Below, piece by piece: positions 753-2,462 of a stretch of DNA of 5,073 bases (its first letter is position 1; the number at the start of each line of letters is the position of its first letter). The translations under genes and the position numbers were made by a program. The notes below the pieces were generated by a model. The model saw only the letters and a program-made list of their open reading frames with translations, ran no database searches and was not told the DNA's origin. Where the stretch lies: the IMG/VR virus record IMGVR_UViG_2713896783_000030; one strand, given 5' to 3'. Source of the DNA: a virus. Taxonomy: Duplodnaviria; Heunggongvirae; Uroviricota; Caudoviricetes.

Positions 753-1493
753 TCACATACCCTGACGTCCAACGTTTGACCGCCAGCTCTCCCAGTTAAA
801 ATTCACCCAACGACCACCATTCATGGTCATACGGTCCATCACCCGATCTCCGAGGAGTGTGCTCATCGCTGCGTGATTCAGGTTCGTCAGCATTCCGACA
901 CTACGCATCGAAGCCGTTCTGCGGTCGACTATCTGGTTCAGCGTGACCTGCTCGTTGCGCGTATCCCGCTGCATGCCAATTTCATCAAGGACCAGAAGGT
1001 CAACTCCACAAAGCTCCTGTAAAAATTTTTCCCCGGACTGGCCGTTGTCGTAGCCGTCATGCAACACGCTCATGACATCGGACACGGTGACGATAATCAC
1101 GCTTCTCCCCTTCGCCATCAGCCGATTGCCAATCGCTGCTGCCAGGTGATTTTTACCGGTACCAGGTTTACCGCTGAACACGAAGTTTGTACATCCGGTC
1201 ATCAATTCATCGGCAATGGATTTCGCCTGGCTCAGAGCATGGCGCTGACCGTCGTTCTGCACCCGGTAGTTCCCGAATGAGCACTTCCTGTGAAGCGGCT
1301 GGATGCCCGCACGGTTCAGGATTTTTTCAACCCGCACCTGATGATTCAGGCGGTTAATCTCCTCGCTGCGTTTTCGTCCTTCAGCAAGTTGCCATTCCCG
1401 CCACTCCTCCACCGTCCGGTACGGTGGAACCGCCCCCTGTGGTGCAAGTCTGCGAATACGTTCAAGAACCCCAACTGCCGCAATGTTTTTCAT
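753..1493 (-). CDS. DnaC-like AAA+ helicase loader (functional analog of lambda P)
   Basis: 246-aa ORF with Walker A GKPGTGKNHLAAAIG and Walker B LLVLDEIG. Near-colinear with E. coli DnaC as I recall it (RPLHxxCSFxNYRV, MLTNxN, RVMDRM, NWxSxRS). ATG 8 nt after a GGGGG tract that overlaps the upstream stop. Confidence 0.9.
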   Translation of the reverse strand: MKNIAAVGVLERIRRLAPQGAVPPYRTVEEWREWQLAEGRKRSEEINRLNHQVRVEKILNRAGIQPLHRKCSFGNYRVQNDGQRHALSQAKSIADELMTGCTNFVFSGKPGTGKNHLAAAIGNRLMAKGRSVIIVTVSDVMSVLHDGYDNGQSGEKFLQELCGVDLLVLDEIGMQRDTRNEQVTLNQIVDRRTASMRSVGMLTNLNHAAMSTLLGDRVMDRMTMNGGRWVNFNWESWRSNVGRQGM

Positions 1494-1499
1494 GACACG

Positions 1500-2462
1500 T
1501 CACCCCCTGAATCCCGGCGGTATTTCAGTGTCCGGTTCAGAAATGTGATTCACGCAACGCTGCGCGGGCGAACGCCCCAGGCGGATAACCAGTTCATCCC
1601 ATTTTTCCCGGAGTTTTGCCGGACTCATGATGTTTTTTACCCAGAACGAATCCCGCTGGAGACGCCCAAACATTTCACAAATTTGTCTGTGAGTTCTGCC
1701 ATCCAGCATCCGCATTGTCCGCACGTCATTGGCCCATGCAGTCCAGTTGGGTTCTTTCGGTCTCGTGATCTCGCCATCATCGCTGGCCGCCTGCTCGTAA
1801 AGACTCACGATTCGTCCCCAGATCCACTGTGCGCACACCAAATCTTCCTGACTTCCCCACTGGCGTTTTTTCGCACTGAACACAACCGCGTCAGGGTGTC
1901 GGGTTAAAAAATTCTGTTCAGCCGTCTGCGGGTCCGGTTGCGAAGCGTCCGGACAAGAAGATCTTTTATCTGACGGATCAGGTTTTAATACTGACGGATC
2001 GGGGTCAATCATCGCCCCCCTAATCGGCAGTTTGTTATCAACAGTTGATCCATCAAAATTTGACGGGTCAACCGTTGAGGGGGCAATATTTGACGGGTCA
2101 ACTGTTAACGGGTCATTTTTTGCCGGGCTAATTTTTCTTTTCGGTTTATATGACTCACGCGCCGCCGCAGCAGCTGCTTCGAGTTTTTCCACATTAAGCC
2201 GATAGATATTGCTTACATTACGCCCACCGACCTTACGCTCTTCCTTCGTCAGCCAGCCCTCTTTCGCCAGTTCTGCAATAGCCGATTTCACTGTGGATTC
2301 ACTTCTTGCACCGATCTGACGCCGGATAGTTTCAATGGCAGGCCATGACACGCCCTCGTCATTGCTGTAGTCTGCAAGACGGGCCATAACCGCCACCCTG
2401 GATAAGATCATGCCGGTGAAGGCGCACCCTTCCCAGACAAGACCATGAAGCTTGCTGCTCAT
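1500..2462 (-). CDS. Replication initiator: N-terminal winged-helix DNA-binding domain, low-complexity linker, C-terminal DnaT-like domain (lambda O analog)
   Basis: Long minus ORF. The ATG at 2462 (MSSKLHGL...) is preferred over the GTG at 2477 because GGGGG lies 4 nt upstream. N-terminus ILSRVAVMARLADYSNDEGVSWPAIETIRRQIGARSESTVKSAIAELAKEGWL is HTH-like. The C-terminus ends SEPDTEIPPGFRG, matching the C-terminal end of E. coli primosomal protein DnaT as recalled ([13 protein letters not shown]). Directly upstream of and co-oriented with the DnaC-like gene. Confidence 0.8.
   Translation of the reverse strand: MSSKLHGLVWEGCAFTGMILSRVAVMARLADYSNDEGVSWPAIETIRRQIGARSESTVKSAIAELAKEGWLTKEERKVGGRNVSNIYRLNVEKLEAAAAAARESYKPKRKISPAKNDPLTVDPSNIAPSTVDPSNFDGSTVDNKLPIRGAMIDPDPSVLKPDPSDKRSSCPDASQPDPQTAEQNFLTRHPDAVVFSAKKRQWGSQEDLVCAQWIWGRIVSLYEQAASDDGEITRPKEPNWTAWANDVRTMRMLDGRTHRQICEMFGRLQRDSFWVKNIMSPAKLREKWDELVIRLGRSPAQRCVNHISEPDTEIPPGFRG
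1959..2152. repeat. Iteron array plus AT-rich stretch inside the initiator gene: putative prophage replication origin
   Basis: Core GACGG(A/G)TC at 1971-1978, 1992-1999, 2062-2069 and 2092-2099, plus AACGGGTC at 2107-2114. Longer units ATTTGACGGGTCAAC(C/T)GTT repeat at 2058-2076 and 2088-2106. An inverted copy GATCCATC lies at 2047-2054. Followed by the AT-rich stretch CATTTTTTGCCGGGCTAATTTTTCTTTTCGGTTTATATGA. Four GATC sites in 1959-2050. The repeats appear in the protein as TVDPSN and DPDPS repeats. Confidence 0.6.

Follow-up and report, generated by a model that had tools for sequence, protein, structure and literature searches.

The DNA analysed here, referred to below as the window, is a stretch of 5,073 nucleotides (nt) from the IMG/VR virus record IMGVR_UViG_2713896783_000030, and its positions 753-2462 hold a phage replication module on the minus strand, in which a replication initiator gene is followed by a gene for a DnaC-like helicase loader. 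Both genes are on the minus strand in the list of open reading frames (ORFs). By sequence search, positions 753-2477 are 100% identical to the prophage/chromosome of Escherichia coli O157:H7, where RefSeq lists the initiator as WP_000095669.1, a 'helix-turn-helix domain-containing protein', and the loader as WP_000788938.1, an 'ATP-binding protein'. The surroundings in O157:H7 are those of a degraded lambdoid prophage, with Cro/YdaS-like, YdaT/cII-like, Q, RusA, DicB and HokD genes, insertion sequence (IS) insertions and a frameshifted integrase. The window module is the replication module of this E. coli O157:H7 lambdoid prophage, and an ordinary, generically annotated member of the known lambdoid class that combines an O-like initiator with a DnaC-like loader. 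Using Megablast against 5,426 complete E. coli genomes, we matched the module in 3,052 of them and most of the module in 1,209. The element of interest is the short C-terminal tail of the initiator, which resembles the end of host DnaT and which, across phages, accompanies one type of helicase loader.

The longest ORF of the initiator gene, 1500-2477, encodes 325 amino acids (aa) from a GTG codon, and both the family alignment and RefSeq start the protein at the ATG at 2462 (MSSKLHG...), giving 320 aa. A residue number in the 320-aa protein is therefore the number in the 325-aa ORF minus 5, so that the tail at 306-325 of the ORF becomes 301-320. The protein has four parts, namely a winged helix, a linker, a lambda-O-type domain and the tail (Table 1), and it matched the PHROG family phrog_391, 'replication initiation O-like', over its full length (E 7.3e-115, residues 6-325 against positions 1-298 of the 298-position profile). 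The original prediction had placed a helix-turn-helix domain at the N-terminus, and this domain was recovered: Pfam HTH_36 matched residues 30-76 of the 325-aa ORF above the cut-off (E 2e-6), AlphaFold2 modelled residues 1-104 as a helix-turn-helix with a wing, and Foldseek searches with the model returned winged-helix regulators of the MarR/PadR/ArsR type. The linker varies in length across the initiator family in the family alignment. The domain that follows aligned with lambda O in BLASTP (residues 153-300 with 145-277, 34% identity, E 3e-25). The tail is predicted by AlphaFold2 to be disordered, with a predicted local distance difference test (pLDDT) score of 41-51.

Table 1. Coordinates of the module's genes, domains, motifs and repeats in the window
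Feature	Position	Strand	Basis or remarks
Replication initiator, 320 aa, lambda-O-like	1500..2462	minus	ORF, phrog_391, RefSeq, family alignment; stop codon 1500-1502
N-terminal winged helix (HTH_36), residues 1-104	2151..2462	minus	Pfam, AlphaFold2, Foldseek; presumed origin-binding
Disordered low-complexity linker, residues 105-177, DPSN/STVD repeats	1932..2150	minus	pLDDT 31-57
C-terminal domain, residues 178-297, lambda O C-terminal domain homologue, not DnaT domain	1572..1931	minus	
Disordered C-terminal tail QRCVNHISEPDTEIPPGFRG, residues 301-320	1503..1562	minus	DnaT-type motif [S/P]-x-P-D-x-x-I-P-x-G-F-R-G
Initiator-loader junction	1494..1508	minus	last codons AGG GGG, TGA, 6-nt spacer CGTGTC, loader ATG
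DnaC-like AAA+ helicase loader, 246 aa	753..1493	minus	DnaC alignment, PRK12377, IstB_IS21, phrog_50
Walker A GKPGTGKN, loader residues 108-115	1149..1172	minus	identical to DnaC
Walker B DLLVLDE, loader residues 165-171	981..1001	minus	aligned with DnaC DLLVIDE
Iteron-like array, consensus TCAACAGTTGACGGG on the plus strand	2038..2127	.	repeat search, Tandem Repeats Finder (TRF)

The initiator ends in SEPDTEIPPGFRG, the phage tail peptide being NHISEPDTEIPPGFRG, and its resemblance to the end of host DnaT, which the original prediction had pointed out, was borne out by alignment. Using BLASTP, residues 301-320 matched residues 160-179 of K-12 DnaT with 14 of 20 positions identical (E 1e-7), and 11 of the terminal 13 residues match. 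A phmmer search of the PDB picked up the DnaT chains 2ru8, 6aep and 9zbt_D, again by this terminal stretch (21 residues), and the initiator carries the pattern RDxNxxSEPDxxIPxGFRG, a membership feature of DnaT. This tail is almost invariant in enterobacterial DnaT, and its IPxGF[R/K] core is kept in DnaT orthologs 32-49% identical to that of E. coli, several of which extend past the motif. At the low end of this range, very-low-identity orthologs (P0258-P0295, 32-46%) keep IPxGF[R/K][G/D] near the C-terminus; their sequences look AT-rich and may come from reduced genomes. A scan of IMG/VR with the DNA pattern for D-x-x-I-P-x-G-F-R-G-stop gave at least 120 loci, and because about 118 of the 120 among the matches listed are ends of initiator-like ORFs or contig-truncated pieces, the tail match is not a product of chance.

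The original prediction had gone further and read the initiator as a winged helix fused to a domain derived from DnaT. This part did not hold, as the alignment with DnaT is confined to about 20 tail residues and domain-level homology is absent. Pfam gave no match to PF17948, the DnaT domain, in the initiator, and the NCBIfam DnaT model (NF002770) scored 16.7 bits (cut-off 201), with only residues 305-325 matching profile positions 159-179. Profile-profile comparison of the tail-less C-terminal domain with tail-less DnaT gave a probability of 0.04%, and comparison of the C-terminal domain with a diverse profile of the DnaT C-terminal domain (CTD; 119 sequences, effective number of sequences 5.2) gave 0.8%, with hmmsearch --max returning E values of at least 2.9. 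By these alignments, the initiator is not a winged-helix/DnaT fusion, and its C-terminal domain is a lambda O C-terminal domain.

True combinations of a winged helix-turn-helix with DnaT do exist elsewhere, joining PF17948 to the tail in proteins such as P0306, P0331 and P0337. A DnaT search of 1.8 billion representative proteins returned many phage-type proteins of 270-400 aa that carry PF17948 behind varied N-terminal domains, and these phage proteins have three kinds of tail: the GFRG type, the HWN/NTDW type and a third, acidic type. The third class reads …GPMDCxDWEFDQRPDDERL or …DxxERxxxIIDVExSDxRIE and is followed by short (157-179 aa) P-like proteins whose genes overlap the initiator 3' end. 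Judged by its sequence, the C-terminal half of DnaT is itself a phage-initiator module.

The downstream gene encodes, as originally predicted, a DnaC paralog with intact Walker A and B motifs. BLASTP against K-12 DnaC gave 49% identity over 242 residues, the alignment running from residue 1 to 241 (E 2e-87). The protein scored 500.5 bits with NCBIfam PRK12377 (NF009043; cut-off 389), over residues 1-245 of 248 profile positions, and 309.4 bits with the DnaC equivalog model (NF005931), below its cut-off of 357; it is therefore a paralog and not DnaC itself. It also matched Pfam IstB_IS21 (70.9 bits, cut-off 24.1) and phrog_50, 'DnaC-like helicase loader'. The paralog retains both the N-terminal, DnaB-binding region of the DnaC type and the ATPase motifs, and is predicted to load DnaB. 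Its ORF starts 6 nt past the stop codon of the initiator, and the junction (...TTCAGGGGGTGACGTGTCATGAAA) is like that of K-12 dnaT-dnaC, TTCAGAGGGTAACGATGAAAAAC (AGAGGG TAA CG ATGAAAAAC). The gene dnaT is also named 14 times in a preprint about the recoding of rare AGR codons (10.1101/069385). The final AGGGGG codons of the initiator look like a Shine-Dalgarno-like site of the loader, and because of this resemblance to a ribosome-binding site we propose that the loader is probably translationally coupled to the initiator.

We compared tails with loaders across phages by starting from the loader and scanning 80 diverse IMG/VR loci per loader type, with the DnaC-type loaders sampled being 53-100% identical to the query and the lambda-P-type loaders 33-89%. 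Upstream of the DnaC-type loaders, the initiator ends in [S/P]xPDxxIPxGF[R/T/K/V]G in 78 of 80 loci, the other two being fragments, and a W-type tail was found in 0 of 80. Upstream of the lambda-P-type loaders, it ends in HWNxxxxWxxx[LI] in 59 of 80 loci and in NTDWxxG in 20, with one truncated, and a GFxG ending was found in 0 of 80. The fuller patterns on the P-type side are HWN[ST]xE[AG]WExx[LI] or [DN]NTDW[IA]xG.., the latter common to lambda O and phi80 gp15. Clustered at 50% identity, the initiators fall into 9 clusters with DnaC-type and 18 with P-type loaders, with no mixing (Fisher p ~2e-7).

Starting from the tail instead, the strict-motif loci with enough flanking DNA among the matches listed (n=92) have a DnaC-like gene in 55 cases and none in 37, and a P-family hidden Markov model (HMM) built from 84 P-like sequences found a P-like ORF in none of the 120 tail-bearing loci listed. 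The isolated phages Tritos, mEp460, HannyBb and SPN1S carry the tail and lack an adjacent loader gene; in the 46-kb genome of Tritos, tblastn found no DnaC-like or lambda-P match. By elimination, these four phages must use host DnaB-DnaC. A separate observation concerns what stands in place of the loader. In 38 loci including L004, as well as in L125, L382 and L383 (E. coli prophages/phages), a DUF977 gene ('LygF'/'Ren-like') lies 40 nt past the tail-bearing initiator, and in the O157 prophage the same gene lies two genes past the DnaC-like gene; this difference in position suggests that a dnaC-like + DUF1627 cassette was gained or lost.

The tail is carried by proteins that otherwise differ. 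In the homologue alignment, N-terminal domain, C-terminal domain and tail vary independently, and the initiators at 57 of the 90 listed tail loci with enough flank differ from the window protein in both domains. P0113 has a different N-terminal domain, and P0070 joins a different C-terminal domain to the same tail. These alignments mark the tail as a mobile module. Initiators close to that of the window are also found with other tails: P0066 (…NTDWIDGIENDL…), P0058 (…HWNSPEAWENTL) and P0038 (…EWNTPEGWRDVL) match the window initiator in both domains at 60-65% identity, with tails of the NTDW or HWN kind, and in each case the next gene encodes a lambda-P loader (PF06992). Lambda O, which ends in TNTDWIYGVDL, and phi80 gp15 likewise have NTDW tails and P-type partners, phi80 gp14 being P-like. 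P0296 carries HTH_36, a true PF17948 domain and the tail HWNSPEAWEDFL, and is followed by a lambda-P loader, whereas the window initiator has no DnaT domain and a DnaC-like partner; the DnaT domain thus does not track the loader. In the searchable literature, mostly outside subscription journals, we found no paper on the tail as a motif or on its tie to loader type.

On balance, we favour a recruiting role for the tail, as a motif of the DnaC pathway specifically. In the mechanism that we propose, the HTH_36 winged helix would bind the iteron-like array within the initiator's own coding sequence, and the tail would serve as a short linear motif. By way of this motif the initiator, sitting on the origin, would dock with a DnaC-type loader or with the complex of loader and DnaB, and host DnaB would thereby be brought to the origin. 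The docked loader would be the co-translated paralog in the window module and host DnaC in its loader-less relatives. The lambda O tail (…NTDWIYGVDL) would tether a P-type loader likewise, and host DnaT, encoded directly upstream of dnaC, would use the same motif in replication restart. Since the tail is absent from P-type modules, where a DnaB-binding motif would serve too, its partner would be the loader or a composite DnaB-DnaC surface. The 2026 papers describe the recruitment of DnaB/DnaC by DnaT as unknown (PMC13377028; PMC13594977). The original prediction had proposed that the origin-binding protein recruits the loader through a DnaT-derived interaction domain; recruitment by a DnaT-like element fits the co-occurrence of tail and DnaC-type loader, with binding of the two as the presumed step, and the domain is replaced by the tail.

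Several points weigh against recruitment by the tail. The sampled loci are phylogenetically related and not independent. Looser tail variants without the xPD element were followed by a DnaC-like gene in 0 of 8 loci. The lineage of P0337 (L375/L376) is an exception: its initiator combines HTH_36 and PF17948 with the tail …MDYTIPEGFRG, a short (125-146 aa) P-like ORF lies about 300 nt downstream, and a DnaC-like gene is missing. This module may have decayed or be a hybrid. The distant IstB/DnaC-like loaders phiP27 L18 and BcepIL02 gp21 have initiators with other tails, which limits the tail-loader rule to the DnaC/PRK12377 subfamily. As the tail DNA abuts the loader gene and holds its Shine-Dalgarno sequence, the co-occurrence could also partly reflect linkage. 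In the 2026 preprimosome structures, the DnaT CTD sits on PriA and around single-stranded DNA (ssDNA), and the authors of these structures would assign the recruitment of DnaB/DnaC to the N-terminal domain of DnaT and not to its tail (PMC13377028). Removal of DnaT residues 154-179 raises the dissociation constant (Kd) for ssDNA from 9.9 to 27 uM, i.e. binding becomes ~2.7-fold weaker (PMC4132743), so that the tail could have a DNA-related role.

The DnaT studies would suit a different account, in which the tail binds a non-loader partner common to DnaT and these initiators and the link to DnaC is indirect, e.g. through recruitment of PriA followed by a DnaC-dependent primosome. We regard this account as unlikely, even though the DnaT CTD docks on PriA by a conserved hydrophobic interface (PMC13377028). 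A partner such as DnaB or ssDNA would be equally suitable for P-type modules, and yet the tail is missing from all 80 P-type loci; a phage initiator placed in the PriA site of DnaT would still be without the DnaT N-terminal domain. PriA has 732 aa and PriB 104 aa, and by our own arithmetic the numbers of modelled residues (1021 in 9ZBT, 1483 in 9ZBU) fit PriA with two PriB and DnaT CTDs of ~70 residues. The tail probably lies outside the ordered PriA interface in both structures. A true winged-helix/DnaT fusion, homologous to DnaT at the level of a domain, is by far the least probable account. Phage proteins of 270-400 aa that match DnaT 80-179 (PF17948 plus tail) exist, and some phage records label relatives of the initiator 'primosomal protein I', but for the window initiator the likeness to DnaT stops at the last ~20 residues in Pfam, NCBIfam and profile-profile comparisons alike.

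We give a somewhat smaller chance than to the PriA-type account to hitch-hiking, in which the tail has no recruiting role, is co-inherited with the adjacent dnaC-type gene and its ribosome-binding site, and leaves recruitment of the loader to the lambda-O-type C-terminal domain. Distinct phage junctions before dnaC-type genes have AGG in 29 of 37 and GGG in 36 of 37, and substitutions at the Arg position next to such genes (ACG, GTG, AAG) keep the G-run, as a Shine-Dalgarno constraint predicts; K-12 dnaT-dnaC has the same junction, and lambdoid mosaicism transfers neighbouring DNA in blocks. However, the same lambda-O-type C-terminal domain, 60-65% identical, occurs with both loader types and so cannot specify the loader. 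The 11 tail residues before R-G are conserved despite synonymous codon variation, with I, P, G and F unchanged although 2-4 synonymous codons are in use for each, and loader-less phages keep the whole tail, encoding R-G with CGC GGT, CGG GGC or AGA GGA, codons that are not Shine-Dalgarno-like. In at least three different C-terminal domain contexts, recombination joints map within the initiator gene, ahead of the tail, and not to the boundary between the genes, and the DnaT orthologs extended past the motif retain IPxGF[R/K]. The synonymous variation, the non-Shine-Dalgarno codons of the loader-less phages and the retention in distant DnaT argue for selection at the protein level, and the tail is best described as a real, non-chance, protein-level feature, with linkage or a ribosome-binding constraint explaining the last two residues in part.

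The array that the winged helix would bind has a 15-nt period, 5-6 copies and a 30-nt super-period. TRF reported 2038-2115 with period 15 (5.2 copies, score 65) and with period 30 (score 82), and the consensus TCAACAGTTGACGGG holds the palindrome TCAAC-A-GTTGA. The array DNA encodes the DPSN/STVD low-complexity linker, between the two initiator domains. The four iterons of lambda occupy the equivalent place inside O, and for this reason we read the array as probably the prophage origin, lying inside the initiator gene. Two copies of CTGACGGATC(A/G)GG were also seen just downstream of the array (1970-2003).

Other features were seen in the window on either side of the module. Directly downstream of the loader, at ~610 (ORF 548-727, minus strand), a 1-nt deletion relative to strain PV15-279 cuts the DUF1627 gene to 59 codons (256 aa in PV15-279), indicating that, in this source, the gene is either a pseudogene or affected by a sequencing error. 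A run of 50 Ns at 2725-2774 falls inside the YdaT/cII-like gene (2485-2877, minus strand); the matching stretch in PV15-279 is 83 nt, and the run therefore stands for a gap or for masking, its length being arbitrary, and is not real sequence. On the plus strand, 3211-4137 holds a three-gene toxin-antitoxin cassette made up of a DicA-like regulator (144-aa ORF), a PaaA2-type antitoxin (PF21217, E 2e-19) and a ParE toxin (PF05016). The cassette, which we take to resemble O157:H7 paaR2-paaA2-parE2, occupies the place expected for the lambdoid repressor. At 4433-4801, gene calls on opposite strands conflict: the plus-strand ORF 4433-4789 matches phrog_21318 (E 9e-67), and RefSeq calls an 'ECs_2282 family putative zinc-binding protein' on the minus strand at ~4601-4801.

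Recruitment by the tail may be part of a wider scheme, although we put this forward tentatively and with less confidence than the recruiting role itself. The tails of lambdoid initiators might act as an 'address code' for the helicase-loading route, GFRG leading to DnaC-type loaders of phage or host and HWN/NTDW to lambda-P-type loaders, with the DnaT tail being the same address and the element that recruits DnaB-DnaC in restart. Since phages have PF17948, the tail and the junction with its Shine-Dalgarno sequence, a corollary would be that the host dnaT-dnaC operon goes back to an initiator-loader module of phage origin. Phage initiators share with DnaT only the tail, need just a DnaC-type loader, and lose the tail on switching to the P type, and these three facts together make the tail a specific candidate for the DnaB-DnaC recruiting element of DnaT. 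Under this scheme, specificity for P should reside in the final ~12 residues of lambda O. It would also supply a rule for annotation, in which tail type predicts the loader route, including in phages that encode no loader.

Compared with known systems, the window module is like lambda O-P (and phi80 gp15-gp14) in its order of initiator then loader, in having iterons in the linker DNA, in its homologous C-terminal domain and in its cII/cro-type neighbours. It differs from lambda in its N-terminal domain, which is HTH_36 and not that of lambda O, in its tail, SEPDTEIPPGFRG in place of NTDWIYGVDL, and in its loader, an AAA+ DnaC paralog in place of lambda P (PF06992). With E. coli dnaT-dnaC it shares an upstream protein that ends in SEPDxxIPPGFRG, last codons AG(A/G)GGG that form a Shine-Dalgarno sequence, and a loader gene that opens with ATGAAAAA(C/T) (M-K-N) a few nt later. 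DnaT, however, has an oligomerisation domain of its own at the N-terminus and the three-helix PF17948 domain, which binds ssDNA, and it acts with PriA/PriB at forks; the window initiator has neither domain, and combines a winged helix presumed to bind the origin with a lambda-O-type domain, its gene containing iterons. The window module is of one kind with Rac YdaU-YdaV, the 'O' and 'DnaC homolog' of Gifsy-1/-2, the Shigella Stx phages POCJ13 and 75/02, and SPN3UB, which share both architecture and tail motif with the window, the Rac tail being SLPDSAIPPGFRG. Their DnaC-like proteins are close to that of the window, with 80-90% protein identity for Rac YdaV and POCJ13 (77-90% at the DNA level) and ~56% for SPN3UB, whereas the N- and C-terminal domains of the initiators differ among these modules, the Rac YdaU type matching neither domain of the window protein; the searchable literature holds no described role for the tail in modules of this type. 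An O-like HTH_36 protein with a DnaT-derived C-terminus has a precedent in DopC-DopE and relatives such as P0296. DopC is a domesticated O-like protein that pairs with the P-like DopE, and its 'DnaT_C' motif was noted by Brezellec et al. 2017 (PMC5509034). In the relative P0296, the part shared with DnaT is the PF17948 domain, and the window initiator is the reverse, with the DnaT tail, no DnaT domain and a DnaC-type partner.

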